Assembly: GCA_963727895.1 (NCBI GenBank) | Contig: CAVSHT010000011.1 | Span: 160,001-224,000 of the forward strand | Direction of reading: 5' to 3' | Source of the DNA: an uncultured Methanosarcinaceae archaeon | Lineage (GTDB): Archaea; Halobacteriota; Methanosarcinia; Methanosarcinales; Methanosarcinaceae | DNA: 64,000 nucleotides | Part shown: in pieces, positions 1 through 21,759 of the stretch | Position numbering within the stretch: the first letter of the stretch is position 1 | Layout: each line of letters begins with the position of its first letter | Program-made: the position numbers and the translations under genes | The notes under the pieces: generated by a model | Told to the model about the DNA's origin: nothing | The model's input: only the letters and a program-made list of their open reading frames with translations | Database searches by the model: none

Positions 1-557
1 ATCCTTGTTTTAGTGGAAACTACTTCTTGACAAAAAAAATAGAGAGGTTACAAAAGTGGATGACATTCTGAAGTTTCAATCCTTGTTTTAGTGGAAACTA
101 CTTCTTGACAAATAGCGGAAGTGATACCACGAAAACCAATAATACTAAGTTTCAATCCTTGTTTTAGTGGAAACTACTTCTTGACATGAAGATTGCTGAA
201 TTGAAGAATCAGCGGAATGAGACGTTTCAATCCTTGTTTTAGTGGAAATTACTTCTTGACAGTAGTGACCGATGACAAAAGCGATAATTGAAAAGTTTCA
301 ATCCTTGTTTTAGTGGAAACTACTTCTTGACACTTAAACAGTGGCAATGTCCCAGGAATAATCACAAGTTTCAATCCTTGTTTTAGTGGAAACTACTTCT
401 TGACGATTTTATGGAAGAGCTTAAACTCTTATTTGAGGAGTTTCAATCCTTGTTTTAGTGGAAACTACTTCTTGACTTTCAAATGAATCGTATGATTATG
501 GAAATGAGACAATACGGACGGTTTCAATCCTTGTTTTAGTGGAAACTACTTCTTGAC
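1..557 (-). CRISPR. CRISPR array segment with repeat A (crRNA sense GTCAAGAAGTAGTTTCCACTAAAACAAGGATTGAAAC); continues beyond the window start
   Basis: Eight copies of + strand GTTTCAATCCTTGTTTTAGTGGAAACTACTTCTTGAC at 1 (partial), 73, 149, 224 (one C>T variant), 295, 368, 440 and 521. Spacers are 34-44 nt. The ATTGAAAC 3' end places transcription on the minus strand. Confidence 0.97.
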
Positions 558-596
558 GAAGCAAAATGGAAGAAACAAAAGAAGCGAAGCATACAG

Positions 597-3500
597 GTTT
601 CAATCCTTGTTTTAGTGGATCTTGCTCACGAATCCTTCACTTTTTCCCATTGTCAACGGACTTTGTAGGTTTCAATCCTTGTTTTAGTGGATCTTGCTCA
701 CGAATTGTTAACGAAACTATCATGCACAAAATATACCCTGTATGTTTCAATCCTTGTTTTAGTGGATCTTGCTCACGAATATGTAAAAGGGCAGATAATA
801 TCCAGACTATACGTCCTCGTTTCAATCCTTGTTTTAGTGGATCTTGCTCACGAATTATAAGTTTGTGCGTTAGCTATTGAAATCAATGAAAGTTTCAATC
901 CTTGTTTTAGTGGATCTTGCTCACGAATCCAATCTTGTGAGGTTTAATTCCCACATATTGTAGGTGTTTCAATCCTTGTTTTAGTGGATCTTGCTCACGA
1001 ATACAAATTTTACATATTTTGTTTTGGAAGATTTTAAAGTTTCAATCCTTGTTTTAGTGGATCTTGCTCACGAATTAATATTAGGAGTTACGATCCCGTG
1101 TGCTGACAAGTGTTTCAATCCTTGTTTTAGTGGATCTTGCTCACGAATATTGCTACCCCTTACCAAAGGTCTAGCAAAAAATGTTTCAATCCTTGTTTTA
1201 GTGGATCTTGCTCACGAATAACTGCTAAACTTGCTATAGATGCTATTAGAAATGGTTTCAATCCTTGTTTTAGTGGATCTTGCTCACGAATAAATGAGAA
1301 GTTCGGTTCGGGCTTATATATTTTATAGTTTCAATCCTTGTTTTAGTGGATCTTGCTCACGAATCTACAAATCCCCAACTTGCGCAAGGGCTTCCAGATT
1401 TGTTTCAATCCTTGTTTTAGTGGATCTTGCTCACGAATCGTTTTTTGTTCAAAAGAGTTATCTAATTTATTTGTAGTTTCAATCCTTGTTTTAGTGGATC
1501 TTGCTCACGAATAGATGTTTGAAAAGTAGCTGTTTCCTTGTGGGATGTGTTTCAATCCTTGTTTTAGTGGATCTTGCTCACGAATACTTAGCCATCTGCT
1601 CTTGTGTTTTGCCCTCTGCAATGTTTCAATCCTTGTTTTAGTGGATCTTGCTCACGAATGGTGACGGTTTCGTTGAGGGATGATGGCACAGTCTGAGGTT
1701 TCAATCCTTGTTTTAGTGGATCTTGCTCACGAATTCCGAAATCACCATCTGGATCATCTACCCATACTTCAGTTTCAATCCTTGTTTTAGTGGATCTTGC
1801 TCACGAATTCCGAAATCACCATCTGGATCATCTACCCATACTTCAGTTTCAATCCTTGTTTTAGTGGATCTTGCTCACGAATTCCGAAATCACCATCTGG
1901 ATCATCTACCCATACTTCAGTTTCAATCCTTGTTTTAGTGGATCTTGCTCACGAATTAAGTAAATGAAATCATCAAATGGCATTCTAGAACTATGTTTCA
2001 ATCCTTGTTTTAGTGGATCTTGCTCACGAATATGCTAAAGAAATCATGGCAGTAATGCAGGTTTACGGGTTTCAATCCTTGTTTTAGTGGATCTTGCTCA
2101 CGAATGCTTCTACAATTATTCCCTCTTTGGTTCTATAGCGTTTCAATCCTTGTTTTAGTGGATCTTGCTCACGAATCAGTGCATAACCATAATTGTTTAC
2201 AAAAGTGTTATTGGTTTCAATCCTTGTTTTAGTGGATCTTGCTCACGAATAAAGAATATCCAGCCTCATGTAGCTATTACATGGAAGTAATGTTTCAATC
2301 CTTGTTTTAGTGGATCTTGCTCACGAATTGACGGCATGTTTTTTGTTGAGTTAACAGGATCTAAGTTTCAATCCTTGTTTTAGTGGATCTTGCTCACGAA
2401 TATATTCCGATGATTGGGGGGATACATGGTATTTGGGTTTCAATCCTTGTTTTAGTGGATCTTGCTCACGAATATATAATATTCAAAATTAAAAATTGTG
2501 ATATCTATATGTTTCAATCCTTGTTTTAGTGGATCTTGCTCACGAATAGTGAAATGTCCGAGGGTGGCAGCGAAATAGTTTAGTTTCAATCCTTGTTTTA
2601 GTGGATCTTGCTCACGAATTATAAAAAATACTTCAGGCGGTGTAGACATCTGTCCAATGTTTCAATCCTTGTTTTAGTGGATCTTGCTCACGAATTCAAC
2701 ATATAACAAAGATATTGTTGAGGCATTTGGGTAGTTTCAATCCTTGTTTTAGTGGATCTTGCTCACGAATGGATGTTAGCCAGAAACTTGCGGTCTCGTG
2801 GAATAAGTTTCAATCCTTGTTTTAGTGGATCTTGCTCACGAATGGATGTTAGCCAGAAACTTGCGGTCTCGTGGAATAAGTTTCAATCCTTGTTTTAGTG
2901 GATCTTGCTCACGAATCATTGAATGGACATGAATCTCAGAAGGGGTATTGGTTTCAATCCTTGTTTTAGTGGATCTTGCTCACGAATACATGCACATCTA
3001 GGATACAAACAATCCGTACACAACTGTTTCAATCCTTGTTTTAGTGGATCTTGCTCACGAATATCATCCCAATCCAGTTCCCAATTTCAGTTTTGTTTCA
3101 ATCCTTGTTTTAGTGGATCTTGCTCACGAATAATATGCTCCATAATACAATATTCTTTTAATCATGTGTTTCAATCCTTGTTTTAGTGGATCTTGCTCAC
3201 GAATAAAAAGGGTATGCGTTTACCTTTCTGGAAACCCGATGTGTTTCAATCCTTGTTTTAGTGGATCTTGCTCACGAATATGCAAGAGCCACCTAGGATT
3301 AATTGATAAGTTGGTTTCAATCCTTGTTTTAGTGGATCTTGCTCACGAATAGGTGCCCTTGCTATTACCGCGATGGGCTTTTTTATGTTTCAATCCTTGT
3401 TTTAGTGGATCTTGCTCACGAATGATTATTCATGGACTTCTGAAGGAGTTGATAAATTTGAGTTTCAATCCTTGTTTTAGTGGATCTTGCTCACGAATTC

Positions 3501-6500
3501 TGCGAGTACCCATTGCCCTAGAATATATCTTTTGGTTTCAATCCTTGTTTTAGTGGATCTTGCTCACGAATCGCAAAAAGATAGGAGATTAACGACTATG
3601 CAGAGAAGTTTCAATCCTTGTTTTAGTGGATCTTGCTCACGAATCAAAATAAGAAAAGACACTGTAATTGTAGAAATGAGGTTTCAATCCTTGTTTTAGT
3701 GGATCTTGCTCACGAATTAATTGAAAGCGAAAACTATACCATTTCAATCCAAGAGTTTCAATCCTTGTTTTAGTGGATCTTGCTCACGAATCTCTCCTTT
3801 AAGAAATTCCGGCATAACATTTTTTACATAAAACTGTTTCAATCCTTGTTTTAGTGGATCTTGCTCACGAATAAGTCTGTTAATTATTGTTTCAAGTGTC
3901 ATTTGTTGTTTCAATCCTTGTTTTAGTGGATCTTGCTCACGAATGTTACTGGGTTTGTTGCATTTGAGGTTGGCTGTAGGTGTTTCAATCCTTGTTTTAG
4001 TGGATCTTGCTCACGAATTCTATTAGGATACTCTCATTCATATGCAATAGAGCGAGACATGTTTCAATCCTTGTTTTAGTGGATCTTGCTCACGAATCAA
4101 TCGTTCCAAACATCATACAATATTGTAAAACAAAGTTTCAATCCTTGTTTTAGTGGATCTTGCTCACGAATCAGATTATAGTTTTTGAATCAGAGGGAAG
4201 TATATTGTTTCAATCCTTGTTTTAGTGGATCTTGCTCACGAATACATAGAACCATATTGGTTTTGCGTTCCGATAACTGGTTTCAATCCTTGTTTTAGTG
4301 GATCTTGCTCACGAATTTGTATACATTTGTATTTGTGTGTAACAGAACGGTGCAGTTTCAATCCTTGTTTTAGTGGATCTTGCTCACGAATCTTTGCTCG
4401 TTCTTCTAGTCTACCCTTTAGTTCTGAGTTTCAATCCTTGTTTTAGTGGATCTTGCTCACGAATAATATCAAGGTTCCTGGAAAGAAGGTCCACTTCCAA
4501 TGTTTCAATCCTTGTTTTAGTGGATCTTGCTCACGAATAATTAAAGCGTTTATGTATCTGGCTCCGTTGATTGATAGTTTCAATCCTTGTTTTAGTGGAT
4601 CTTGCTCACGAATGCAGAAAATTATTTGATGAACAAAAATATCCTGGGTTTCAATCCTTGTTTTAGTGGATCTTGCTCACGAATTGTTTATCAGGTCACA
4701 AAAGAAGAGTGTATGACGTTAGTTTCAATCCTTGTTTTAGTGGATCTTGCTCACGAATGTAAATTAGGAGGAAAACAAAAGATGGAAACTTTAAGTTTCA
4801 ATCCTTGTTTTAGTGGATCTTGCTCACGAATGTTGCGTCGTAATCTCCGGCTGCAATGCCATAACCGTTTCAATCCTTGTTTTAGTGGATCTTGCTCACG
4901 AATAATAAGTCCAGTCGTCCTATTCCAATAACATCTTCTGTTTCAATCCTTGTTTTAGTGGATCTTGCTCACGAATCAGGCTTCAGCATGTGGGGTATCG
5001 TTCCATTCGGGGTTTCAATCCTTGTTTTAGTGGATCTTGCTCACGAATAAGTAATTATTATGCATCTAGATATGGAGTGAAAGTCGTTTCAATCCTTGTT
5101 TTAGTGGATCTTGCTCACGAATCCAATGACGACGATTTACCCACATTGATGTTAAAACTATGTTTCAATCCTTGTTTTAGTGGATCTTGCTCACGAATAA
5201 TAGAACCTGAATGTATTCAGGAATACCAACATCGGAAGTTTCAATCCTTGTTTTAGTGGATCTTGCTCACGAATAAGATGAAAAATTGAGACCGACTTCG
5301 AATGCATTGTTTCAATCCTTGTTTTAGTGGATCTTGCTCACGAATAACATGTGCTGATACCTCATCGGGGTCATCCATCTCAAGTTTCAATCCTTGTTTT
5401 AGTGGATCTTGCTCACGAATGCTCATATGAAATTGAGACAAAACGCAGAGGTTGGTTTCAATCCTTGTTTTAGTGGATCTTGCTCACGAATTGCACATTT
5501 ACCCTGTATGGGAGTTATAATTCTAATTGTTTCAATCCTTGTTTTAGTGGATCTTGCTCACGAATTCATGCATTGTGGCTAGAAAACGCAAAAGAAGCAA
5601 GTTTCAATCCTTGTTTTAGTGGATCTTGCTCACGAATTAGCTCAAAAAATCACAAAACGTTGTCCTTCTTGTAAGTTTCAATCCTTGTTTTAGTGGATCT
5701 TGCTCACGAATACTTCAATTTTCATTTTCAACATCTCCTTTCCTGTTTCAATCCTTGTTTTAGTGGATCTTGCTCACGAATTAGGTGCCCTTGCTATTAC
5801 CGCGATGGGCTTTTTTATGTTTCAATCCTTGTTTTAGTGGATCTTGCTCACGAATATTATCTTCAAAATTCGCTCGAAATGAAATTCCTAGTTTCAATCC
5901 TTGTTTTAGTGGATCTTGCTCACGAATACACTTTTTCAATGCTATTAATATTTCCTCATCTGGTTTCAATCCTTGTTTTAGTGGATCTTGCTCACGAATT
6001 AAGTAAATGAAATCATCAAATGGCATTCTAGAACTATGTTTCAATCCTTGTTTTAGTGGATCTTGCTCACGAATTATCATATTGGCGTTTGAATAGTTTC
6101 CAATGCAGATGTTTCAATCCTTGTTTTAGTGGATCTTGCTCACGAATCAGGATTCTAGTTTAAGATACAGATCTGCGGCGGTTGGGGTTTCAATCCTTGT
6201 TTTAGTGGATCTTGCTCACGAATTTCTATTTTCTATAATCCGTATTATAGTTTCTAGTTTCAATCCTTGTTTTAGTGGATCTTGCTCACGAATAGATGCA
6301 TATAACTCCTTATGTTTCGGTGGATCTTTTGTTTCAATCCTTGTTTTAGTGGATCTTGCTCACGAATACTTTGTCCTCTTTTAATAGTACCATCACTATC
6401 CATGTTTCAATCCTTGTTTTAGTGGATCTTGCTCACGAATAAGATTTCAAGCGGAAGGAATAAGAAACGATTGTAGTTTCAATCCTTGTTTTAGTGGATC

Positions 6501-9500
6501 TTGCTCACGAATTTGAAGTATTTAATACGTATAGACAGTCTCTAATTGCGTTTCAATCCTTGTTTTAGTGGATCTTGCTCACGAATGGATCTTGGACGTT
6601 TAAGACTGCTACCGTAAAATCTTAGTTTCAATCCTTGTTTTAGTGGATCTTGCTCACGAATATGTCCGCATTAGGAGATAATAGACTCAATCAGTCTAAG
6701 TTTCAATCCTTGTTTTAGTGGATCTTGCTCACGAATTAGGATCCTTCAGAACGAAGGTGTTAATGCAACAATGTTTCAATCCTTGTTTTAGTGGATCTTG
6801 CTCACGAATTATTTTAGTACCTTTAAACAAATCTCTAATTGATTTGTGTTTCAATCCTTGTTTTAGTGGATCTTGCTCACGAATTGTGAGCGTTTTTTTC
6901 AAATTCAGGGACTGAGTAGGTTTCAATCCTTGTTTTAGTGGATCTTGCTCACGAATACAAACACCCTAATTGCTGTTATTGATACTTATAAACTGTTTCA
7001 ATCCTTGTTTTAGTGGATCTTGCTCACGAATCGAAGTTAAAAGAATTGATGAAGAAATATCCCGAAATCGGTTTCAATCCTTGTTTTAGTGGATCTTGCT
7101 CACGAATCATGATGTGTGGAATGTTGACCCTTGACAGTGCAAGTTCGTTTCAATCCTTGTTTTAGTGGATCTTGCTCACGAATCAATTACTCTGTTTCCA
7201 GCTCCAGTATTACTCACCGCGGTTTCAATCCTTGTTTTAGTGGATCTTGCTCACGAATCCAGCAGCGTACAGTGTCATAGATGATGCCTGCAAGAGTTTC
7301 AATCCTTGTTTTAGTGGATCTTGCTCACGAATACGTATGAGTTGGATATTGACACGCAAACCTAGGTTTCAATCCTTGTTTTAGTGGATCTTGCTCACGA
7401 ATTTATTAGAAAAATCCATTAACTCTTCAAAGCTCAAGGTTTCAATCCTTGTTTTAGTGGATCTTGCTCACGAATCTCTTTTGTAGTCGAAATGAGCTTA
7501 CCATATGCATTAGGTTTCAATCCTTGTTTTAGTGGATCTTGCTCACGAATGATTGGACTGGGACAGCAGCAGGAACTATTTGGGTGTTTCAATCCTTGTT
7601 TTAGTGGATCTTGCTCACGAATTGAATACGGTACTTTCAACATTCAGTATGCTCTGTCGTTTCAATCCTTGTTTTAGTGGATCTTGCTCACGAATCCAAT
7701 GTAACTTTATATTTGATTTAGAGAGATTATGTTTCAATCCTTGTTTTAGTGGATCTTGCTCACGAATCCAGCAGCGTACAGTGTCATAGATGATGCCTGC
7801 AAGAGTTTCAATCCTTGTTTTAGTGGATCTTGCTCACGAATAGGACGAACGAAAATTAATGAAAGATATTGAAATGTTTCAATCCTTGTTTTAGTGGATC
7901 TTGCTCACGAATGAAGCCGATGGGTTAGAAGAAACTATTCAAAAAAGTTTCAATCCTTGTTTTAGTGGATCTTGCTCACGAATTATTAGAAGAATGTTTA
8001 GGATCAACCTGTTGAAATATGTTTCAATCCTTGTTTTAGTGGATCTTGCTCACGAATATGAAAGTACAGGAGCGAGGTCTACACTTCGCAGGAGTTTCAA
8101 TCCTTGTTTTAGTGGATCTTGCTCACGAATTATCAACGATATGTTGAACTTCTGGAACAATCTTGTTTCAATCCTTGTTTTAGTGGATCTTGCTCACGAA
8201 TTTTGTTGGCAGCAAATGATAGCGCGTCGTCAATTGGTTTCAATCCTTGTTTTAGTGGATCTTGCTCACGAATGAATCAAATCAGAATTTGAGTCTCTTG
8301 TTAAATTTGAAGTTTCAATCCTTGTTTTAGTGGATCTTGCTCACGAATATTTCTTGCTATATACTACAATAACACTAATAGTGTTTCAATCCTTGTTTTA
8401 GTGGATCTTGCTCACGAATTCCGTACTCCGTGGTAAAACGGATGCTGAGTTAGTGTTTCAATCCTTGTTTTAGTGGATCTTGCTCACGAATTCCAATGGA
8501 ACGATGACGTTTTAAAAGAAATCCCTGATGTTTCAATCCTTGTTTTAGTGGATCTTGCTCACGAATTTTTTGATAAGCCTCTTGAATTCAAAGAATGGTT
8601 TGAATATCGTTTCAATCCTTGTTTTAGTGGATCTTGCTCACGAATAGACATTTACAGCCTCCTTAGATCCCTGATGCAGCGGTTTCAATCCTTGTTTTAG
8701 TGGATCTTGCTCACGAATTTAAAACATGGAATTAACTCTCAACGATAATGTAACGTGTTTCAATCCTTGTTTTAGTGGATCTTGCTCACGAATCAGGATA
8801 CCCGTTGCTTTAGCTGCGGGAGGAATGCGGTTTCAATCCTTGTTTTAGTGGATCTTGCTCACGAATACTCTAAAATAGAAGATATCAAAGCCATGAATGA
8901 GTTTCAATCCTTGTTTTAGTGGATCTTGCTCACGAATCTTAGATCCGTGATTGATATATTGGTTGTAGGAGTAGTTTCAATCCTTGTTTTAGTGGATCTT
9001 GCTCACGAATAAGACACAAGCTGAATTATGGAATCAGAGGGCATTGTGTTTCAATCCTTGTTTTAGTGGATCTTGCTCACGAATTTCACTGGACTTGAGG
9101 GAATTGACGACAAGGGACATAGTTTCAATCCTTGTTTTAGTGGATCTTGCTCACGAATTTGTATTTAGATTGCGTAGGATTTTGAAGGTGAAGTTTCAAT
9201 CCTTGTTTTAGTGGATCTTGCTCACGAATTGGATACCTCAAGTATTAGTACAGAAGGGGAATCTGGTTTCAATCCTTGTTTTAGTGGATCTTGCTCACGA
9301 ATTTGCGGCTTTAACAATTGAAATTATCCCATTGATAGGTTTCAATCCTTGTTTTAGTGGATCTTGCTCACGAATCTCTCAAAATTGAAACAATTGTGTT
9401 TAGAATTTGATTGTTTCAATCCTTGTTTTAGTGGATCTTGCTCACGAATCCGGTTCAATCCCGGATGACCAGACCTATAGTTACTGTTTCAATCCTTGTT

Positions 9501-9522
9501 TTAGTGGATCTTGCTCACGAAT
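597..9522 (-). CRISPR. CRISPR array with repeat B (crRNA sense ATTCGTGAGCAAGATCCACTAAAACAAGGATTGAAAC), about 122 repeats
   Basis: The 37-bp GTTTCAATCCTTGTTTTAGTGGATCTTGCTCACGAAT recurs about every 73 bp from 597 to 9486-9522 (manual count ~122). Spacers are mostly 33-40 nt. Leader and cas genes lie on the right side. Confidence 0.99.
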
Positions 9523-9635
9523 AGGGCAAAATTTTCCGTCATTTGGCCAGAAAAAGCCTGAAATAAGCCCTTTTTTTGGGCTAAAATTCTTGCTGGAAAA
9601 TTATCAAACCCTTTATAAATACAAGAAAAATCTCT
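9523..9635 (-). promoter_or_regulatory. CRISPR leader
   Basis: AT-rich non-coding gap between the cas4 stop and the first repeat, with a TATA-like TTTATAAA at ~9612-9619. Confidence 0.75.
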
Positions 9636-10367
9636 TCATACGCAGATATTCCTGTAACAGCAATCTACGCATTTTCTAGAAGACTTAGCGGTTTTGGGAT
9701 ATAAACCTTTTTGAACAATATCGAGTATTTCCCCAATAATTTTCTCAGCCTTTTTGAAATCAGAAGTAGTAATCTCCATTTCTTTAACCAGGCTGTTGCT
9801 TCTGGTAAAACATATGTAAGCACGATTTACTTCAATATCGTAATTTTCTCTAATCAAAAGAGCCTGCAAAACCAGCTGAAATTTATAGGTTTTAAAAATC
9901 TTGTCTTTATACTCGGCAAATTTGTATTCAAGAGGAGCAGCAGTTCCATCTTCAAGAAAAAGCACCTCATCAACTATTCCCTTTATATGATGTTGTTTTG
10001 AAGCAATGAAAACGTCACTCTCTTTCCTTATGCAGTTTAGTTTTTTTCTCACATAATCCCTGTTGGTTAGTTTCCTTGTTTCATGGACCTCGCGGCCTTT
10101 GATAACCTTAAACCTTTTCTCTTCATACTGGGGAATATCGAGGCAATACATATAGTAGATAAAACGAGAACAGAAAAGGTATTCAAGAACATCTGAAATT
10201 CGGATTATTGTTCCGGAATCTTTATCAAAATCAGGCTCAGTGTATATCCCTTCTTCATTATCAGGATCACTTTCAGGAGCTATATCTTTTTCACAATCTA
10301 TTGCAGCTTGCTGATCACTTCCCGCACAAGCAGAAGAGCTACCTTCTTTGAGAGAAAAATTCGTCAT
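9636..10367 (-). CDS. cas4: CRISPR-associated exonuclease Cas4 with acidic N-terminal extension
   Basis: EYLFCSR, GIVD, PLEYK, QLVLQAL and C-terminal CVDCCYRNIC Fe-S cysteines; position next to the array. Confidence 0.93.
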   Translation of the reverse strand: MTNFSLKEGSSSACAGSDQQAAIDCEKDIAPESDPDNEEGIYTEPDFDKDSGTIIRISDVLEYLFCSRFIYYMYCLDIPQYEEKRFKVIKGREVHETRKLTNRDYVRKKLNCIRKESDVFIASKQHHIKGIVDEVLFLEDGTAAPLEYKFAEYKDKIFKTYKFQLVLQALLIRENYDIEVNRAYICFTRSNSLVKEMEITTSDFKKAEKIIGEILDIVQKGLYPKTAKSSRKCVDCCYRNICV

Positions 10368-10381
10368 ACTTACCTCAAAAC

Positions 10382-10673
<292 letters not shown>

Positions 10674-10758
10674 ACCCAATCCCCTCATTCTTATTTTATC
10701 AAATTATTACTTTCGAATTATTACTTTACCTTTTCACAAACTTATCGCGTTAAAAGTT

Positions 10759-11731
10759 TTATTTCCCGATCAGGCTGTTTGCAATCCTGTGACAGTCAAA
10801 CTGGATTGTATTTCCAATTTTTATTTTCCTTCCCTTGTAGCTTATTTCTTTATCAAAAGTTTCATTGACAGCCTGAATAAGGACGGCTTTACCTTCTTTG
10901 TTAAGAGTCATTCCATTAGGAATTTCATCAAAAAAGCTGTTTGAAACCTGTTTTTTCGAGAAAAGATTGAAAACGGTCCTGTCAATGTGGATGCGGTACA
11001 TTTCAATCAGGTCAAACACAAAAGATTTTTTGTTGTAGTCATCCGTATGGTTGAAGCCGACATAAGGATCAAGTCCTGCTATAATGCACGCTTTTTCCAC
11101 CTTTGAATACAAAACCCCATATCCGTAATTCAAAAGGCAGTTGAATCCGTCCTTTGCAGGATTCCGGCTTCTGCCATTGAATTTCCATCTGTCCGGTAAA
11201 AGAAAACTCAAAGCTTCAAAATAGTATCTGGAAGCCATTCCCTCAAGCCCCATGATTTTTCCCCGCATCTCATCAAGTTTTCCTTCAAGGACTTCAAGCT
11301 GGGATTTCATGTCTTCCATTCCAGAAATGTAGTCGTCAAGTTCGTCCTTCTGGTCAGGCCTGTTCTTTTTAAGGTCTTTCAAAAAAAGAATCTGGCTGTC
11401 AATCTTCTGCTCAATCCAGCCTTTTGCAAGCCTGAACCCTTCAGGCTCTTCCGAAATTTCAAGCTGCCTTCTTCTTATGTAAGTCGTGCTCCCAAGTTTT
11501 GAGTGCCATACTCTGCCGTAAGGGTCCCCGAAATTATCCAGAAAAACGATGTCAATATTGTTTTCTACTGCAAATTTAATGGCATCGGTTGTTATGGTTG
11601 CAGAAGTTGTAATCAGGATGCTGTCAACTTTCTTTTCAGAGACTTCGAAAGTCTTGTCGTCAACTTTTACAAGAAAAGCAGTTGTTCTGTTTTTTTAGAA
11701 ATGAACCGCGGGTGTTGATTACAAGCTGCAT
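10759..11731 (-). pseudogene. cas1: Cas1, apparent +1 frameshift near 11675
   Basis: Starts MQLVINTRGSFLKK (ATG 11729-11731). An extra T falls in a homopolymer run, then the frame is open: DIVFLDNFGDPYGR...GLEGMASRYYF...NCLLNYGY...GLDPYVGFNH...DLIEMYR. Confidence 0.92.
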
Positions 11732-12387
11732 TTTCTCACCGTTCCAAAACCGCGAGATACGGATTTTCCAAGACCGAAATAGTCGGGGATAAGGAAATTT
11801 ACCATAAACTCCCCTTTGAACGTAGCAATTTCCACTCCTTTCATTTTACTAGAACCTGGGTTCATATTAATCTCGCATTTGATCTGTCCCGGAACAGTAT
11901 ATCCAAGAGACTTGGACATCGAAAGAATGTTTCCAACCAGAGTTTTTCGAAGGAGTTCTTTTTGTGCTGTAGAGTCCATCTTCTTGTATTTGCCAGTGAA
12001 GTTTTCTTGGTTGAGGGCAAACCAGGGAGTTTCAAATCTGTAGGTATGGATTTTGTCTGAAATGCCAAAATCTTGTTCTTTAAAAGAGATTTTCTTTTCC
12101 AGAATTTCATATGTGGATTCACCTAGTTCGATTTTTTCATATTTATTGAAAATTTCCTGCAAGACTTCTACACCCTCATTTATCCCGAAAACTAGAGGAA
12201 TCCCTTTCAAAATTTGATATTGAACCAAAGGATACATATAGATAACTTTATCACAATTGTGTTGGTGCAAAAGTGTATACTCATTAAACCGGGTAGCGAA
12301 AAAACCTCGAAGTTTTGAGGCGTTTGTTCCTACTTTTCGGTCAGGAACAAGAGTTAGAGTTAGCGTTTTGACTTTCATGTCAATCAC
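11719..12387 (-). CDS. cas6: CRISPR endoribonuclease Cas6 (Cas6b-like)
   Basis: LHQH, YPLVQY and the C-terminal Gly-rich loop GLGKSVSRGFG; intact ORF. Confidence 0.9.
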   Translation of the reverse strand: MIDMKVKTLTLTLVPDRKVGTNASKLRGFFATRFNEYTLLHQHNCDKVIYMYPLVQYQILKGIPLVFGINEGVEVLQEIFNKYEKIELGESTYEILEKKISFKEQDFGISDKIHTYRFETPWFALNQENFTGKYKKMDSTAQKELLRKTLVGNILSMSKSLGYTVPGQIKCEINMNPGSSKMKGVEIATFKGEFMVNFLIPDYFGLGKSVSRGFGTVRKCSL

Positions 12388-14804
12388 ATATCATGCTGGA
12401 CTTTAATTCAAAAACAAAACCGGTTTCAGGATCATAATAATGTTTTATTTGTTCAAAAGGAATATATCCTATATTGAGATCCTCTAGTTCTTCACAGGAA
12501 AAGTCTTTTTTAGGCACCGAGATGATGTATTCATTGAATTTTTTCCTGATGGACAGGAATTTCTCTTTTCGATCCAGTGGATTTTTAAGAGATTTCATTA
12601 CAATGTATTCTTTCCATATTTCAGCCGCTTCGTTATCATTTTCTACAAATACATCTATTTTTTCGTATCCTGTTTTGTCATCTATTAACCTGAAATCGGA
12701 TGTAAGAGTTTTAAATTTAAGCTCATTTATGTATGAGAGTAGCTCTTTGGACTCATCTTCACTTGAAGTATCTTTAACTTTCCTGAAATAGTTGTTATTT
12801 AAAAAGAGCAGGTCTTTTTCATAAATTTCAGAGGGGAGGTCTTTCAACACTTCTTTTGTTTTGTCAATTAGAAAACTCGAATATATATATCGATGAAACT
12901 CTTTCCTTTCATCTTTCAGAACCACAATGTTTACTTGTCCTCGAGAACTCTTGGAAGAATTCCTGTTACATCTCCCTGAAACCTGATTTATTGAATCAAT
13001 TGTGGCAAAATCCCTGTAAACAACATCTACGTCGATATCTACTCCGGCTTCTATAAGCTGAGTGCTAACAATAATTTTTCTTTTTTCCGACTTTTCTTTG
13101 ATTTCCTTAATTTTTGTAAGCCTTTCTTTTGGAATAATGTTAGTAGAAAGATAATAATAATCACTATTTTCAAGTTCTAAATTCTTTAAATGATTAAATA
13201 CCTCAAGCGAAGATTTAAGAGTGTTCAATACAAACAAAAAATCTTTTTCGGAATTATTTTTTACTTCAGATTCAATTATTTCCTTGAAATGATCCATATC
13301 CATCGGATTCAGGTTTATATTCAGCTTAACTCGATCAAATTCCCTGAAATACGTATCTTTATTTTTTACCAGCTCAACAATTTCTCCCTTTTCAGGATCA
13401 AAAATGAGAGGTTGAGTTGCTGTTACAAAAATGAAGTACGTATTAAAATATTCTGCAAAACCCGAAATGATCTGTTTTAACAGTAGCCAGTACTTATGAG
13501 GAATTGACTGGATCTCATCAAGTATTACAATCGAATTTGCAATTGTATGAAATTTTCTGAGTGAGCGATTTTTATTAGACACAATTGTGTGGAAAAACTG
13601 GACAAATGTAGTTACGATTATCTCAGAGTTCCACCCCTCAATTAAAAATAAACCTTTAAGCCCTTCAAATTCTTCATCGTCTTGCGTTCTATAAAATATA
13701 TCTGCAAGGTGATGATGTTTAAGTAGCACTTCCTCAGAAGGATTTGCGGTCTCAACTGTTTTAAAAACATCTTCAAAAACATCGTAGTTCTGGTCTATTA
13801 TACTCAAAAAAGGTAGAGAATAAATTATTTTTGCTTTGATTCTCTTTTCCTCTCTTAATCTTGCTTTCAATTTTAATGCAAACGAAAGTGATGTGAGAGT
13901 TTTTCCCGAACCTGTAGGGACACTTATTGAATATATTTTATTATTAAGATCAAGTTTCTCAATACTTTCTGTAACTTCCTCATAAATCTCGTTACGTACT
14001 TTATTCATTATACCTTCACTATTTTGGAAACCCTTTTCTACCTTATACTTATCCACAAGTTCAGGTGAAATTTCGATTTCACTGGAAACATCAATAGAAG
14101 ACGCATCTATCTTATCAGAGTTTATAAGAATTGAGTATAGAGTTAATGTAATTAAATAATAGCCTGTAAATTGCTCCTTCTTGAGCAATTTTATGAATTT
14201 CCTTCTATTTTTTAAAATTTCGTTAGCTATGGAACGGTATTCATTGCAGAAAGTGTCGATGTCAAAAGAAATATCATACCCATCTAGTAACTTTTCATAT
14301 ATTGTTTTTAATTCACTTGTATCTAATGACTTTATTTGAAGATCAATAATTTCAAGAGTATCTTCATCTATAATTCTCGTATTTCATCCTCAGCATCTTT
14401 CAGGTTTCCATGATGCCTTTTTACAATGAGATATCCTATGATAGGAGTATATTCCAGAATATTTTTATCGTTAAGCGAATCTACATACTTTTTTAATATG
14501 TAATAGGTAAAAATAGCTGATATCAAGGCCATGATGATATTCTTTTTTATTTTTTAAGCCCCTCTGTATGGAAGGATCTAGTCTCAAAAAGATATCTTTG
14601 AAAATACCTTGTGCCTTTCCCAAAATCGTGACAAACACCTATAAGAAATGTTATTTTTGAAAAAGTATTTTCATCAATTCCAAACTTTTCCAGTGATAAT
14701 CTTTTCTCCCTGCTTGTCGAGATAGATTTGTTTCCTACATTGGATAAATGTTTAAATAGTATTTTATCGGGATGGGAATAAAGATGGAAATCACATGAAG
14801 ACAA
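12380..14804 (-). pseudogene. cas3: Cas3 HD-nuclease/helicase; HD part broken by several indels (~14190-14590)
   Basis: HD-region motifs YSHPDK, CHDFGK and the helicase motifs PTGSGKT, ILDEIQ, TAT, STQLIEAGVD, QVSGRCNR. Confidence 0.92.
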
Positions 14805-15493
14805 TTCCTTCTCCATTCTCAAGCCTCCAGAGATTATTTACATTCGCAAGAATGCATTTTGCATTTTTTTCAAACAAAACTTTGCCGTATTCTGTAACTT
14901 CCCTATTAGGAAGCATTTCTATTGGAATAGTCTCTGAAAAATACTCTTTTCCTTCTTCAAAATTGATTTTTATTAGCTCTTTTTCGGGAATTACAGAATG
15001 AATTTCCCTTTCAGAGTCTGAAAGTTCACTGACAGCCTCCATTTCTCCTATAAATTCATAATTGGCAATGTGTTCACTCAGACCGAGGCACAGAGTATAC
15101 ACCGACTTGTGCTCTTTTAACATAGAGTAAAGTTTGTTATATACTTCTTCCGAAGAATGAGAAAAATAAATCCTGTATCTTACATCTTTTAATACCTCGA
15201 ATCTTATCTGAGTTCTGGTCTTTATTCTGCTCATCATGGGAGCAATTTTGGTGTCGATTAAATTTTCTGCAATTCTGGTCTTTTTGATAGGACAGACCTA
15301 TTTTTACTGCAATATTTGCATCTTCTTTAGATAAATACTGCAGATACTCATCTTTTCCAAACCCCTCTATAGCACCAATCATTCCAGCAATAGCTGTTCG
15401 AGGAGGAATAGAATATGTAAGGGGAGAAGTTGTAGTATAGTGTTTTCGGAAATGACCGAATTCTCCCCATACATCGAACACTAATACTTTCAT
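14791..15493 (-). pseudogene. cas5: Cas5 (type I-B/Hmari), split by a frameshift near 15297
   Basis: MKVLVFDVWGEFGHFRKHYTTTSPLTYSIPPRTA N-terminus; C-terminal half is ORF 14791-15237. Confidence 0.9.
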
Positions 15494-15502
15494 GTTCTTA
15501 GC

Positions 15503-16487
15503 TCACATTGATAATTTTTCAGTATTAATCCCGGCTTCATTAAGGCTCTTTTCGAAGTCAGTCTCTTCTCCGCCATATGTGAACATAAGAGACCCGTCCA
15601 GACAAATCTGGATATTTTCAATCTTGTCTTTGTTTTTAGCCAGTATCATCAACCAATCTCTGGACATCAATCCTCTACCTGTGAGATATCCCGAATCTCT
15701 TCATCAATCAAATCAGACTTTAAGACTGAAAAGGTTGTTCAGATCCCCAATGTGATAATTTCCCTCTTTGTAGTTTACTTTCAACAGGAGACGGGGAACC
15801 TGGCCGACTTTTGACCTGGAAATCAGGTTCTTAGTTCCATTCCACATTCCATCAAGAAGCAGATCTACATCTTCCTCTGAAAGTTTCGTATCCTTTGCCG
15901 CATTTTCATTAATAATTCCGTAAAAACTTATCAAAGAATAGGGTAAGAAATCCTCTTCACGGAACGTTTTCTGACTGGCTCCTTCCTTTGAAGCAAAAGC
16001 TCCTGTTCCACGGAAATGTTTCATGAAGACTTTATGCATTGATCTACCGATCTTAAACTGTACAGGACCAGTATGAGTTATTGAACCTGTTTCTTTTTCC
16101 CCTTTCTTGACTTTAAGTTCAAGTGGAACAGTTCCACCAAATAAACGAACGTCAATACAATCAGCCAGAAGATTTCTCATTTATGGCACTTTTACCAGTT
16201 TCGAATGAATCAAGAGTCTCTTCAGTTGTCAAAAAATCTCTTGCTCTCATTTTTGCATCTTGAATAGAACCATTTTCATCTGAGATTTCTCTAACAAAAA
16301 TCTCTTTACCTCTAAACTTGTAGAGATGATCACGTATTGTTCTCTTAAGCCTGACATCTGTTACAAGGTTTATTCCTGTCTCTTCGTCAATCCGTGGTTT
16401 GTTTTCATCAAGTGGATCTCCGTTTGGATTTCCATCTTTTATATCATACAAAAATACAATTTCAGATCTTCTGTTTACTTCAGTCAT
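15503..16487 (-). pseudogene. cas7: Cas7/Csh2 (type I-B), split by frameshifts near 16175 and 15650-15715
   Basis: NPNGDPLDENKPRID, VTDVRLKRTIRD, IDVRLFG, SRSKVGQVPRLL; the tail can be followed to TGA at 15503. Confidence 0.9.
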
Positions 16488-18350
16488 TTTTAATCTCCTT
16501 TTCAGATTTAGGTGACTTTAAAAGGTTTGACAAATTCATACCAAGAACAAAATAGAAACTGATTTCATCGTTTGACATTTTCCAATTATTGCCAGATTGA
16601 ATCATGTATTTTGAGATCAGAGTATTCAAGTTCTTTATAATAATTAGCATCATACTCTTCGAGTTTATTTATGGTTTCAGGGAAGATTCTTTTTACATAA
16701 CGCTCATCAAGATTCAGGCCTCGAAGTTTAGTTCTAAAAGGAGTACTTCCACGCTGAAATTTTTGAATATTTAGTAAATACTGAACAAGTGCGCCTTCTA
16801 AAAAAATAGCCTTCTTTGCATCGGTATTGAAGAAATGTTCAAATTCCGAAAAGATAACATTTGTTCGTTCCTCATAACCATTGTTTTCCTTTGGTTCCAT
16901 GTCACTTAATAAAGTTGATAAATTCGTAGAATTCACACATTTACCTCCTGTATAATTTCCAAGCAAACATAAATTGACTTAAAAAATCTAACATTTGGAA
17001 TCCCAAAAACAGAGAATATCTTGTTGAATTTTCATTTCTGAAATCTTTTCTAATACGCTGCATAATATACTTTAACAGAAAATTATAATCAATGGAAGTT
17101 CCTGTAAATATCCCGTTTGTGATTTCTAAAAAGTACTTGTTTAAATCAGGGTCATCTAGAGTATTTGGGAAGAACCATCTTAAATTACCTAATGTGAATT
17201 GAATGGATTTTACTTCGGTATCATTAGAAAAATAGTTACTGAATATTTTTCTTTTGTCAACGATTTCTTTGGATTTGAAAAGCTCTCTTAACCTTGAAGG
17301 AAGAATGTCCTCGATATACAAAAGAATTCGATATGCCGAATTGGATTTTTCATAAAATTGGAAATTAAAATTAAGATAATTATCCTCTTCACTTAGAATT
17401 TCAAGGATATCGTTTTCATTAGTTGTTAAAAATCTTTTATAGTCCTTATTAAATGTAAATTTTTTCTCATTAAATTTCTCAAAAGTATCGAAAAGGTCCT
17501 CGTTAGTACTATTATTAAATAGCTTAGGGATAATGAGGAAATTGAACCCATAAAAACCAAAGGACATGTATTTTTCGATATATTCTTTTCCCGCTGTAAT
17601 TTTCAAGGCACATTCAAGGCAAATAGGATTATTTCTCCATGCCTTACTTTGGTCAAATCCTCCGCTAACAAATCCTCTTTTATCTACTGTATAGAATTCA
17701 TAAGGCGTAACGAAACCATAAACTTCATTATGTTTTTTACAAACCGAGCATAATTTATCATCGGCTTTAGAGATAATATCATATTTATTGTAAAACTTGG
17801 AAGCCCCATTGTTCTTAAGGATCTTACGAAATACTTCAAAATCTCCGACATATCTGATGAAGTCATTTTCTTCAAAAACTAAGGTTAATATCGAGTTCTC
17901 CTTTGAATCGATGGAATTAACTTTAGGTTCCAGATCTAAGAGTATTTTCTCTTCATTCTCTTTTATACACTTTCCAAGAAGCTCCAAAAATTGGACTTCT
18001 CCACTATCTAATATAGGCTTTGCTTCTTTCAAAGGCTTTGAGAACCAGCCTATAATCTTGTTAGAGAATGTTTTTTTGATTTCTGTGACTCGTGCAGTAG
18101 GAGTAATGTCTGGTCCATTAGAAGATCCTCTCTTATAGAGATATTTTATAATTTTCTCCTTTGAGTACTCCTGATGCTCAATTTCTTTAAACTCAAAATA
18201 ATCTTTGCAAGAAACTAACTTAATGCAAAATACATGTTTATAAGTTTCATTGCTCGCAGGGTTTTCAACTAGAATTGACACAAAATCATTTAAATCCTTA
18301 TTATCTTTTTCGAGTGCATACTCACCAATTTCTTTCATTGCTTCAATCAC
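16480..18350 (-). pseudogene. cas8b: Cas8b/Csh1 (TM1802-like) large subunit, split near 16960 and 16615
   Basis: CSVC...FYTVDKRGF...PICLEC zinc motif and C-terminal EISFYFVLGM; first gene of the operon. Confidence 0.87.
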
Positions 18351-18773
18351 AGAAATTACACCCTCTTAAAATAGTGAAATAGGTCCTATGTTTAATTTAG
18401 CGCACTTGTGTATCTTTGAAATATAGTCCATTATATACAAGTCATAAAATTGGATAGTTAACATATTTTATATATATTCCTAAAATTAATTATAAAAATA
18501 AATAAATTAATCAAAAACTCAAGTAGATCTGTTATTGTGACATATTTAATAAAAATAAACAATTGAGTAACTATAAGTTCAAATTTGCTTTGATTTATAC
18601 AAGAGATTCATTTAATTATGTCGTTATCTACTTGACTAGGATTTTCCCTTCAAAAATTATACTGCTGTCAGAGGAAGAGGCACCTGAAAAAAGGTTCAGT
18701 CTGAGGAAATGATCGAAAAAACATTTTACGATTATATAAAGAGGTCCTCTCGTAGTAGATGAAGATAAATTCA

Positions 18774-18895
18774 GATAGGACTTACGCGATTGAACTGAAA
18801 AATCAATAGCATTAAACCTATAACTGTCTAAAACGTATTTTTAACTATAACGTCTATTGTGCTTGATTTTAGATTTCAACTGTGTAAGTCCTATC
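18774..18895. mobile_element. MITE-like element with imperfect ~35-bp terminal inverted repeats
   Basis: GATAGGACTTACGCGATTGAACTGAAAAATCAA on the left and TTGATTTTAGATTTCAACTGTGTAAGTCCTATC on the right, with a non-coding interior. Confidence 0.55.
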
Positions 18896-19240
18896 AGATT
18901 TGATACTTTCATAATTCTCATTGAGGAATGGCTTAGAAAAAAGTTAAGGGTTAGGTTAGTGGTGGAGTGTATGAGGTAGATGAATAGGAGGAAATATGGG
19001 ATGAGGAATTTTAGCGAAGTACTGAGCGTATATATGTCAGCAGAGCCATATAAGCAAAAATATCATTTTGATGTTTATGACCGACTTCCCCTAGTAAAGG
19101 ACGAAAACTTTCAAACACTTTCTTTTCGAAATTTAGCTGTTACTGATTACCATTATATTTTGGAAATATATTTTATTTATTGTCCTTTTGGCTTTCAAAG
19201 TGGGACAAACAAATTTATTTAGCCCAATGTCTCTAAAGAT

Positions 19241-19255
19241 CGAAAGGTTTAAATA
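19241..19255 (+). promoter_or_regulatory. Archaeal BRE/TATA promoter of the small three-gene operon
   Basis: CGAAAGG-TTTAAATA about 50 nt upstream of ATG 19306; GGAG ribosome-binding site before the ATG. Confidence 0.6.
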
Positions 19256-19305
19256 TTTTGACGGCGTATATACTGTTAGTAATCGAAGATTCGGAGTTTT
19301 AAAAA

Positions 19306-19461
19306 ATGCTTAAAAAAGTTTTAAAATTAAATAGGGACGGCAGTATTGGTATTGGCGTTCCAGCAAAATTAGCAAGAGAACTTGCTCTAACTAGCGAAAG
19401 TTGCGTCAATATTGAAAAAGTCGGAAACAGTTTACATATTACTAAAATAAAAATTGATTAA
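19306..19461 (+). CDS. AbrB/MazE/SpoVT-like small DNA-binding protein (51 aa, not in the ORF track)
   Basis: MLKKVLKLNRDGSIGIGVPAKLARELALTSESCVNIEKVGNSLHITKIKID* matches the swapped-hairpin pattern (K-x-GS-x-x-IP..A..L.L..G..V.I...G..L.I). Confidence 0.75.
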   Translation: MLKKVLKLNRDGSIGIGVPAKLARELALTSESCVNIEKVGNSLHITKIKID

Positions 19462-19471
19462 GGCGATTAAA

Positions 19472-19780
19472 ATGACAACTACAAAAACGAAACTATTACA
19501 GACAGTTAGAAAACACTGTTTAAACTGCTGCGGCGGTTCATACCTCGATGTGGAAAACTGTGCAGCGGGTTCAAATGCTGAAACTTACTCGCAATGTGCA
19601 CTATGGCCGTTTCGATTAGGTAAAGATCCTGAGGAACCCTCAGTTGCTATGAGGGAAAAGGGACGAAAAATTTCCGAAAAACAAAAAGTTTTGAAGCAAG
19701 TACCCACAGGAAATAAAATCGCCAAAATTAGAGCAACAAGTCAGCGTCATGACATGGCTGAAAAAGTGTTTCTAGAGTAA
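19472..19780 (+). CDS. Cys-rich putative zinc-binding protein of mobile-element type
   Basis: VRKHCLNCCGGS..DVENC...QCALWPFRLGKDP motif followed by a basic tail; likely ATG at 19472. Confidence 0.7.
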   Translation: MTTTKTKLLQTVRKHCLNCCGGSYLDVENCAAGSNAETYSQCALWPFRLGKDPEEPSVAMREKGRKISEKQKVLKQVPTGNKIAKIRATSQRHDMAEKVFLE

Positions 19781-19818
19781 ACTCACAACTTATAACATAA
19801 TTTGACAGGGGATTAAAA

Positions 19819-20154: not shown

Positions 20155-20245
20155 GACAAAGTGTTGAAATTCAGCTGTCCTCCAAACTGTTATTTGATTA
20201 ACTCCTGCTTGCTTTGCAATTTTTTCACTTGTCTTTACCAAGTTA

Positions 20246-21574: not shown

Positions 21575-21584
21575 ATGATCCCTC

Positions 21585-21688: not shown

Positions 21689-21759
21689 GGCTCAAAAATG
21701 CGGTAAAAATTTCGCCATTTTGGCGGAGTTTTTGTCTATGTTTTGCCCACGTGGCCCAC

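Follow-up and report, generated by a model that had tools for sequence, protein, structure and literature searches.

The window analyzed here, a 64,000-nt stretch of a contig from an uncultured Methanosarcinaceae archaeon, opens with a long CRISPR array followed by its leader and a set of type I-B cas genes. The host genome belongs to the largest genus of its family (59 genomes), probably Methanosarcina. The features are as follows.

1..596, minus strand: distal block with the variant-B repeat, 10 copies counting the 155-base part that lies outside the window on the upstream side
597..9522, minus strand: variant-A CRISPR array, in which 122 copies of one 37-nt repeat, all identical, flank 121 spacers, 115 of them unique
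7842..9485, minus strand: the leader-proximal (newest) 23 spacers of the variant-A array
9523..9635, minus strand: leader of the variant-A array
9636..10367, minus strand: cas4, intact (TIGR00372, 168 bits, cut-off 65)
10382..10703, minus strand: cas2, identified by reading of translations; split into two overlapping partial frames whose break shows no long homopolymer
10759..11845, minus strand: cas1 (335 bits), with two TAA codons inside the match and an N-terminal stretch in another frame
11719..12387, minus strand: cas6b, intact (Cas6b_N and Cas6b_C)
12380..14383, minus strand: helicase part of cas3 (TIGR01587, 136 bits)
14547..14822, minus strand: what is left of the cas3 HD domain, matching just positions 1-54 of the 178-position model
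14791..15493, minus strand: I-B cas5, split into two overlapping ORFs (model positions 1-82 and 91-211)
15713..16487, minus strand: I-B cas7 (Csh2), split, with three TGA and one TAA within the match
16586..18350, minus strand: cas8b, split in two frames (TIGR02556 positions 1-418 and 455-539, in different ORFs)

Four lines of support identify the minus strand as the crRNA strand. The variant-A repeat, which is also present in related genomes, ends in its reverse complement with a 3′ ATTGAAAC, which, at the end of a repeat, we take to be the usual 8-nt crRNA handle. Rfam CRISPR-DR7 matches to the array lie on the minus strand, as does the cas operon next to it. In most of 29 related loci, the array is bordered at that end, after its final repeat, by a near-identical leader-like sequence; the 17 leader-bearing loci were used in the leader-proximal comparison below. 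The agreement among handle, CRISPR-DR7, leader position and cas operon bears out the proposal in the first-pass annotation that crRNA comes from the minus strand. Because the host is an archaeon, we set aside a sigma-70 scan for promoters in the leader.

NCBIfam models matched all four I-B signature genes, cas8b, cas7 (Csh2), cas5 (Cas5h) and cas3. Between the HD remnant and the helicase part of cas3, stops occur in all frames. The host cas7 is the strongest stop-bearing match in our search of the family, and internal stops were found in none of the above-cut-off I-B cas7 matches from 30 related genomes. The three adaptation genes cas4, cas1 and cas2 adjoin the leader and are all present, with cas4 alone intact; the break in cas1, the sole cas1 of the genome, falls at an A7 run and may be a frameshift or an assembly error. 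Elsewhere in the window, translation and RNA polymerase genes spanning roughly 14 kb are intact. Judged by its reading frames, this locus is a decayed member of type I-B whose interference genes do not form an intact set. The decay suspected earlier is thus evident in cas8b, cas7, cas5 and the cas3 HD domain, and it reaches cas1 and cas2 as well. A tblastn search of the region past the variant-A array in a related genome, G116, found no homologue of these I-B genes.

Type III-D systems are marked by csx10, csx19, fused Cas7 RAMPs and a short Cas10. Directly past the distal (old) end of the array lies a III-D gene set, accompanied by cas6b, a gene for a Card1-like CARF nuclease and one for a reverse transcriptase (RT). 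Its csx19 (129 bits, cut-off 35) and TIGR03986 RAMP (414 bits, cut-off 161) score well, and its csx10 reaches 153.5 bits (E=9e-45), under the curated cut-off of 177.3. The set has five RAMP genes and includes a csx7-like double RAMP, and cas10 carries an FGGDD motif. The first-pass annotation had proposed a type III effector acting in trans and a genome search for cas10, csm or cmr; the search recovered this module with its GGDD-bearing cas10, but in cis, past the distal end of the array. As a genome-wide cas1 search showed, the module here lacks a cas1-cas2 pair of its own. A +1 frameshift at a G7 run interrupts cas10 about 20 codons before the GGDD. At this site, one G fewer is found in contigs of two related strains (X3 and X10); the X1 and X2 contigs do not span it. 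Among sequencing runs, the share of sampled words reached 0.25 at most. The additional G may be real, in which case the III-D effector may be dead in this genome because of the frameshift, or it may be an assembly error.

We scored spacer orientation as a codon-usage log-likelihood ratio, + minus - strand, a measure with an accuracy of 78% on host 36-mers from training ORFs and 75% on those from held-out ORFs. By this score, 15 of the newest 23 spacers are + sense (mean 1.24), giving a maximum-likelihood estimate (MLE) for the sense fraction of 0.95 (95% CI 0.55-1.0). For the older variant-A spacers (98 minus 6 duplicates), 41 of 92 unique sequences are + sense, with a mean of -0.25 and an MLE of 0.41 (CI 0.24-0.58). 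The two sets differ by a Mann-Whitney test (p=0.014) and a likelihood-ratio test (LRT, p=0.017). Taken alone, the newest 23 yield p=0.21 in a sign test and p=0.03 in a one-sample t test. A permutation-based scan of leader blocks gave p=0.017, with a best block of 41 spacers (from 6441), and a CUSUM along the array gave p=0.026. The change-point analysis suggested in the first-pass annotation is therefore positive for codon score but negative for purine skew (scan p=0.12). The boundary at 7842 was itself picked post hoc, after inspection, and the contrast in bias between newest and older spacers is marginal.

That boundary came from a reading by eye in which nearly every newest spacer was + sense. 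A modest lean is seen (15/23, mean 1.24), but "nearly every" is overstated, because two of the nine example peptides offered have negative codon scores (8131-8164, -0.31; 9376-9412, -1.59; the other seven are positive), open frames show no + excess, and the spacer at 8646-8681 is very likely reversed. Stop-free frames are more numerous on the + strand in 6 of the 23 spacers and on the - strand in 8, with 9 tied. The spacer at 8646-8681 has AGGAGG followed by ATG on its minus strand, and very likely has the orientation opposite to the one first read.

The same score was applied to 29 related arrays. Of their 1293 unique spacers, 55.9% are + sense (mean 0.364, p=4e-7); the MLE is 0.62 (CI 0.58-0.68), i.e. 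about 62% with classifier error corrected, and the older part of the present array (0.41, CI 0.24-0.58) lies below it. Blocks as biased as the newest one occur among them: a mean of 1.24 is reached by 4.5% of 661 sliding 23-spacer blocks, by 3 of 44 blocks without overlap, where permutation predicts about 5%, and by 2 of 16 leader-proximal blocks. The latter two, the most biased, belong to G117 and G015, genomes with an intact I-B cas7; no cas genes were found around these arrays in the 7-20 kb fetched per side. Across relatives there is no newest-versus-older trend (0.404 vs 0.255, p=0.41), and array bias does not differ between those with an above-cut-off I-B cas7 (0.417, 17 arrays) and those without (0.292, 12 arrays; p=0.43). 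This repeat family does not tend to strand runs, its strand scores having a lag-1 correlation of -0.011 (n=1264). Between-block variance slightly exceeds its permutation value (p=0.063), a small departure of the family null from a perfect binomial.

We also considered PAM composition as a source of the family-wide bias. The published Methanosarcina PAM, TTA, cannot explain it, because host gene composition then predicts an mRNA-pairing fraction of 0.50. If the PAM were instead TTC or TTT, the expected fraction would be 0.62-0.64, which may account for the bias.

A much stronger orientation bias is seen in variant-B arrays. The variant-B repeat has its first 23 of 37 nt (+ strand) in common with the variant-A repeat, including the crRNA handle, and differs in the last 14. 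In the window, the variant-B block is fused to the variant-A array in register, without a leader between them, and 8 of its 10 spacers, the oldest, are + sense, with a purine content of 0.64. Together with the variant-B arrays of five relatives, 57 of 76 spacers are + sense (MLE 1.0, CI 0.83-1.0). In the variant-B arrays of G116 and G136, purine content is unusually high (0.56-0.64, compared with 0.539 for host coding strands), and RBS-start motifs are sense in 9 cases versus antisense in 2. The RT, which adjoins cas6b, is intact (364 aa, TIGR04416 293.8 bits), group-II-intron-like, not fused to cas1 and 76% identical to the RT of G116. The surrounding 4 kb yielded no group II intron RNA, Rfam matches (E<=0.1) being limited to CRISPR repeats. 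The same RT occurs in G116 and G136 beside a variant-B array with a cas1-cas2-csa3-like set on its far side; by comparison, this genome has lost both that set and the leader, and its array is joined to the I-B array. The variant-B block is what remains of a III-D array linked to the RT and now fused to an I-B array, and the fusion appears to have come with a deletion that removed the leader and cas1-cas2 of the RT system.

Searches for protospacers of the array were all negative. All 131 spacers matched their own genome only by chance, over 22-23 nt. Among INPHARED phages there was nothing for the array at 5600-9522, and for 1-5640 only weak matches (E 0.01-0.5) of 33-39 nt to Clostridium/Clostridioides and Aeromonas phages; the Clostridium/Clostridioides match of the spacer at 4759-4794 was read as an RBS-like word. 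PLSDB plasmids, searched with 5600-9522, matched at foreign CRISPR repeats alone. Exact-word searches covered 3 of the 131 spacers and found nothing, whether in IMG/VR (all three), metagenomes (two) or genome contigs (one). When the whole block was used as a DNA query against 177 family genomes, only other arrays were recovered, because repeats dominate such a query. Conversely, the 1293 spacers of relatives have two plausible diverged targets in this genome, TnpB/IS605 copies on one contig (C15), with mismatches at 4 of 34 and 6 of 37 positions, too few targets for a PAM reading. HK97-capsid proviruses were found in none of the 59 genomes of the genus.

We give an even chance to the reading that the + excess of the newest block combines a family-wide preference with sampling fluctuation. 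The block is the leader end of a large array; in this reading, Cas6b cuts the minus-strand transcript into crRNAs that could be loaded both by the I-B effector, now decayed, and by the neighbouring III-D effector. One part of the excess would be the coding-strand preference of the whole repeat family (~56% raw), and the other an ordinary sampling fluctuation within 23 spacers. Several observations favour this explanation: the sign test gives p=0.21 for a boundary chosen post hoc; the bias exists family-wide and related blocks reach 1.24; relatives show neither a newest-older trend nor an effect of cas7; stop-free frames in the block have no + excess; and a weak coding-strand bias of I-B arrays has been published (PMC8482600). 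The newest block is probably not a true change point. The anatomy, the decay of the genes, the size of the bias and its position among related arrays are shown; that the block needs no separate recent selection regime is what we infer from them. Against this, the contrast outlasts both scan correction (p=0.017) and CUSUM (p=0.026), the block has an MLE of 0.95 while the older part falls below the family value of 0.62, and the slightly raised between-block variance in relatives (p=0.063) leaves the null imperfect. The classifier does detect strong bias where variant-B spacers are concerned (57/76), and this genome, with a broken I-B effector beside a III-D module, is the exact case in which one would expect a shift.

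Such a shift, which we regard as possible but doubtful, would follow from a change of regime. I-B interference would have been lost first, so that only mRNA-pairing spacers were protective, via III-D and its cOA-activated Card1-like nuclease, and only lineages with such spacers persisted; cas4-cas1-cas2 would still have been adding spacers, the last ~23-41 of them nearly all + sense, and adaptation would have decayed later. The first-pass annotation had proposed recent type III selection, possibly after I-B decay, in this sense. Its premises stand: six I-B genes are disrupted next to intact housekeeping genes, cas7 being the strongest stop-bearing match in the family, and a III-D set (cas10 with GGDD, five RAMP genes, csx19, cas6b, Card1-like) adjoins the array. 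III-D could plausibly load crRNAs of the variant-A array, because the repeats share the handle-bearing 23 nt, and the III-D-linked variant-B arrays (57/76) show the type-III-only pattern. The shift itself, which the proposal requires, is marginal. The difference between 0.95 and 0.41 (LRT and scan both p=0.017) favours it, but the boundary was set post hoc and the sign test of the block gives p=0.21; the leader blocks of G117 and G015 are as biased despite intact I-B cas7, while relatives without I-B cas7 are not more biased. Within the block, at least one spacer (8646-8681) is very likely of opposite orientation, no protospacer was found confirming the orientation of any spacer, and the cas10 of the presumed effector has its own frameshift at the G7 run.

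Two other sources of a strand run fare worse. Priming in I-B systems leads to strand-skewed acquisition, and a run of spacers could come from one strand of a single mobile element with co-oriented genes, without selection at the RNA level; the array does hold duplicated spacers (1735/1809/1883, 2771/2844, 1957/6000, 3351/5782 and 7259/7768), a sign of repeated hits on the same targets. Every duplicate, however, lies outside the newest 23. No pair inside the block overlaps or shares at least 11 nt, the words its spacers share are 11-13 nt long and lead to older spacers with disagreeing flanks, block GC equals that of the older part (0.370 vs 0.366, p=0.86), and the lag-1 correlation in relatives is -0.011, all of which makes this explanation improbable. 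More improbable still is acquisition from RNA, in which, after the fusion, the stand-alone RT and I-B Cas1-Cas2 would have fed transcript-derived, orientation-biased spacers into the variant-A leader. The RT is intact, adjoins cas6b and has no intron RNA within 4 kb, and the RT-flanked variant-B arrays of G116 and G136, with their own cas1-cas2, are nearly all sense, purine-rich and enriched in sense RBS-start motifs (9 vs 2). The newest variant-A spacers nevertheless lack this signature (purine content 0.553, one RBS-start motif per orientation), nothing indicates that the RT partners with I-B Cas1, and no published test of whether this archaeal RT clade takes up spacers from RNA turned up in our literature search.

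A genuine shift would mean that a single array shows effector turnover, with I-B lost and III-D using the same crRNAs, a process usually reached only via comparison of many genomes. A fuller version, in which the array is a layered record of an old RT-linked III-D block essentially all antisense to mRNA, a long I-B era neutral in orientation and a last mRNA-pairing era after I-B decay, seems rather unlikely to us. Were it true, spacer orientation could date the loss of the I-B effector and the type III takeover, and an archaeal stand-alone RT system would make or keep only transcript-sense spacers. The contrast between variant-B and I-B arrays is more solid than the newest-block shift. Variant-B arrays associated with RT and III-D are near-entirely transcript-sense, purine-rich and often lie over ribosome-binding sites, whereas sister-repeat I-B arrays are only ~60% sense, and this contrast lets one ask whether the archaeal RT acquires from RNA.

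Set against known systems, the neighbouring module resembles type III-D in its csx19 and TIGR03986 RAMP, both above cut-off, and in its csx10, double RAMP and GGDD-bearing cas10; it differs in that cas10 is split at the G7 run and csx10 falls below cut-off. The RT can be compared with the RT-CRISPR-1 clade, which includes the stand-alone CRISPR-associated RT of Methanosarcinaceae (Toro et al. 2017, PMC5541045), and with the arrangement "RT next to cas6, no cas1 in the locus" noted by Silas et al. 2017 (PMC5513706). Like the Methanosarcina RT of that clade, ours is group-II-like, unfused, without intron RNA and next to cas6b and type III genes; the likeness is one of gene context, and the sequence comparison covered the G116 RT (76% identity).

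The closest parallel for the array as a whole comes from Vink et al. 2021 (Genome Biol 22:281, PMC8482600), who give a 55% coding-strand bias for I-B arrays and place I-B/III arrays with shared repeats and acquisition first in frequency among "multi-effector compatible" classes, with 71 genomes. A trait of such shared arrays is a preference for coding-strand protospacers that retain the type I PAM, for which the codon score is our proxy (55.9% in the family, 15 of 23 in the block). As in that class, I-B here stands beside type III, the handle part of the repeats is common and there is one cas1, and our raw family excess of 55.9% matches the published 55%. The I-B genes here are pseudogenes, however, and our bias derives from codon usage where theirs derives from mapped protospacers; a shift within one array, marginal here, is not part of that description. 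The same paper cites 88% coding-strand spacers in Moraxella III-B as a natural type III bias, and the variant-B arrays (57/76, MLE 1.0) are comparable or stronger. Relative to such strand-biased type III arrays, the newest variant-A block is biased only weakly. A coding-strand bias of I-B arrays that share with type III is already known (PMC8482600), and the newest block, as it stands, is within the known weak bias of such I-B plus type III arrays.

The array in this window, contig C11 positions 160001-224000, is built from two repeat variants, A and B, and adjoins a type III-D module.

Window 597-9522, crRNA from the minus strand: A array, 122 identical 37-nt repeats and 121 spacers
Window 1-596 plus contig positions 159846-160000 (155 bases upstream of the window): B block, 10 repeats
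L002 (the region past the array's distal end) 8522-19586, contig positions 148522-159586, minus strand: type III-D module with a separate cas6b, a CARF-nuclease and a reverse transcriptase (RT), outside the window, just past the distal end of the array

Read on the + strand, the B and A repeats are identical over their first 23 nt and differ over the last 14, and the two blocks join in register, without an intervening leader. A DNA search matched the array segment in 58 of 58 other species genomes of the same genus (2.3-5.8 Mb), presumably Methanosarcina. The assembly (3.67 Mb, 19 contigs, 84% complete by marker genes) holds no further CRISPR array; apart from one tandem repeat of non-CRISPR type, all other periodic matches are repeats that code for protein. 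At 71300-71760 contig C14 carries some six near-perfect tandem copies of a ~73-nt unit; the stretch looks non-coding and is no CRISPR array. Within the A array, duplicated spacers occur as three adjacent copies (window 1735-1919), two adjacent copies (2771-2879) and three distant pairs (1957/6000, 3351/5782, 7259/7768). One duplicated pair is offset by 1 nt, which points to independent acquisition from the same protospacer.

That the crRNA comes from the minus strand is supported by four observations. The reverse complement of the repeat terminates in ATTGAAAC, a typical 8-nt handle; Rfam CRISPR-DR7 matches the array on the minus strand; in most of 29 related loci (17 of which were treated as leader-bearing) the corresponding end of the array continues, after its last repeat, into a conserved leader-like sequence; and the cas operon, which is located upstream of the leader, is encoded on the minus strand. 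Spacers in + sense therefore give mRNA-complementary crRNAs, as the first-pass annotation had proposed.

That annotation had also claimed that nearly all of the newest ~23 spacers are in + sense. We scored strand as a codon-usage log-likelihood ratio, + minus -, summed over three frames, with 799 long ORFs from the genome as training set (accuracy on 36-mers 78% for training genes and 75% for held-out ORFs). Among the 23 leader-proximal spacers 15 are positive (mean 1.24), with a mixture-fit sense fraction of 0.95 (95% CI 0.55-1.0), compared with 41 of 92 unique older A spacers (six duplicates dropped; mean -0.25, sense fraction 0.41, CI 0.24-0.58). The two groups differ marginally (Mann-Whitney p=0.014, LRT p=0.017). 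By codon score, a permutation scan of leader-proximal blocks of 8-60 spacers gives p=0.017 (best boundary 41 spacers) and CUSUM gives p=0.026; a purine-skew scan gives p=0.12. By sign test, 15 of 23 is not significant (p=0.21). Stop-free frames, the measure closest to reading by eye, show no + excess in the newest 23 (six favour +, eight favour -, nine are tied); two of the nine example peptides offered for the claim score negative and seven positive, and the minus strand of the spacer at 8646-8681 has a Shine-Dalgarno-like AGGAGG followed by an ATG. What the newest spacers show is therefore a modest lean rather than a property of nearly every spacer.

A lean of this kind has a background in the repeat family. 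Across 29 related-genome arrays oriented as in the window, 55.9% of 1293 unique spacers are positive (mean 0.364, p=4e-7), for a corrected sense fraction of 0.62 (CI 0.58-0.68). When these relatives' arrays are cut into blocks of 23 spacers, a mean of 1.24 is reached by 4.5% of 661 sliding blocks, 3 of 44 non-overlapping blocks (~5% expected by permutation) and 2 of 16 leader-proximal blocks. The arrays show neither a trend from older to newest spacers (p=0.41) nor a lag-1 correlation between strand scores (r=-0.011). The Methanosarcina I-B PAM given in Table 1 of PMC8482600 is TTA. The mRNA-pairing fraction expected from host genes is 0.50 with TTA and 0.62-0.64 with TTC or TTT, and, taking the PAM as TTA, a PAM composition artefact is not needed for the family bias.

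The I-B module upstream of the leader (minus strand; cas8b, cas7, cas5, cas3, cas6b, cas1, cas2, cas4) has decayed, as had been supposed. Each of cas8b, cas7 and cas5 is split between two frames, only model positions 1-54 of 178 are left of the cas3 HD domain, the N-terminal stretch of cas1 lies in another frame beyond a break at an A7 run, and cas2 occupies two frames; both cas6b and cas4 remain intact. We read this decay as real, with assembly noise an unlikely cause, because the breaks in cas5, cas7 and cas2 lie away from long homopolymers, ~14 kb of ribosomal-protein, elongation-factor and RNA-polymerase genes in the same window (38.8-53 kb) are unbroken, and the I-B cas7 match, with four internal stops here, has none in 30 of 30 related genomes above the family cut-off in a family-wide search. 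Since the frameshifted I-B cas1 is the sole copy in the genome, new spacers can probably no longer be added to the array.

Several other features lie nearby. Three ORFs of 136-452 aa directly upstream of cas8b (window 19731-22076, minus strand) gave no Pfam match, and the start-codon ORFs tested gave no NCBIfam match. An inverted pair of IS1-family transposases (28622-29316, minus; 33321-34015, plus) flanks ~4 kb containing Roc/LRR GTPase fragments, a metal-dependent hydrolase and a DUF2117 gene (31508-32803, plus). One in-frame TGA (31916-31918) breaks this gene into two parts, which match the Pfam model consecutively, at positions 1-93 and 99-325.

The first-pass annotation had further invoked a type III effector acting in trans. 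A type III module, with cas10, is indeed present, but in cis, adjoining the array. It is of type III-D, and from the array outward its genes are the RT, cas6b, a Card1-like CARF-nuclease (401 aa), cas10, a RAMP gene, csx10, a double csx7-like RAMP, csx19 and a TIGR03986 RAMP. The RT (364 aa) is group-II-intron-like and stand-alone, has FSDD rather than YADD as its catalytic box and shares 76% identity with its counterpart in the related genome G116; an Rfam search detected no group II intron RNA around it. The cas10 gene keeps its FGGDD, but is split ~20 codons upstream at a G7 run (L002 15515-15521, minus strand) that is one letter shorter in contigs of two related strains; two metagenome runs gave no coverage there. 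Either a genuine slip mutation or a fault in the assembly may account for this frameshift; the best run in a search of sequencing runs contains just 0.25 of the sampled words of this assembly. Next to the module (L002 4980-6749, minus strand) are genes for a 589-aa Schlafen-group-3-like helicase and for an unannotated protein of 263 aa, which may form one defence island with it.

Related genomes G116 and G136 carry, in order, III-D genes, RT, B array, a 660-bp presumed leader, cas1-cas2 with a csa3-like gene on the opposite strand, and the A array. The inter-array segment is missing both in the genome studied and in its relative G010, and in each B abuts A; from this gene order, the two repeat variants are evidently two arrays fused by deletion. 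A crossover inside the common 23 nt would yield exactly the fused product. Four more genomes have single B-like repeats near A-type arrays.

It is the variant-B arrays that are strongly biased. Eight of the 10 variant-B spacers here (purine 0.64) and 49 of 66 in five relatives are positive, pooling to 57 of 76 (p=1.5e-5; sense fraction 1.0, CI 0.83-1.0). This result shows that the codon-score test can detect a strong bias, and that the transcript-sense arrays are the RT-linked III-D ones, not the I-B ones. Purine content is 0.56-0.64 in variant-B spacers (window 1-596 and loci L044, L046, L048, L049, L050 and L028) versus 0.539 in host coding strands, and RBS-plus-start motifs number nine sense versus two antisense (one each in the newest A block; 90 and 64 among the 1293 spacers of related A arrays), which suggests a preference for 5' parts of transcripts. 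Either RNA-derived acquisition or type-III-only selection may be the source of this bias.

For the newest A block, the most likely reading, to which we give about an even chance, is that its lean would reflect the known family-wide coding-strand bias plus sampling. A recent switch of the array to type III selection after I-B decay is possible, though doubtful: its premises hold (crRNA strand, type III module, I-B decay), but related arrays without an above-cut-off I-B cas7 are not more biased (mean 0.292 in 12 arrays versus 0.417 in 17 with one, p=0.43; a coarse comparison of related genomes), which points against loss of I-B raising the bias. Primed adaptation is less likely than either and improbable. 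No protospacer was found for any spacer in searches of the genome itself and INPHARED phages, of PLSDB for the array's newer half, and of IMG/VR, metagenomes and genome contigs with exact words from 3 of 131 spacers. Contig C15 1-13500 (L036) holds five TnpB/IS605 OrfB copies within 13.5 kb, and spacers of two related genomes match this region with 4/34 and 6/37 mismatches. RT-fed acquisition at the A leader is the least likely of these explanations.

The family bias we favour agrees with known systems. PMC8482600 reports a 55% coding-strand bias for I-B arrays, matched by the 55.9% found in this repeat family (by codon score rather than mapped protospacers). In the same paper the commonest "multi-effector compatible" class consists of I-B/III arrays that share repeats and acquisition, a description that the family bias fits. 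The RT, group-II-like and with no intron RNA detected, would match the Methanosarcinaceae "RT-CRISPR-1" clade (PMC5541045), and its arrangement with cas6b agrees with the published "RT next to cas6, no cas1" gene order (PMC5513706).
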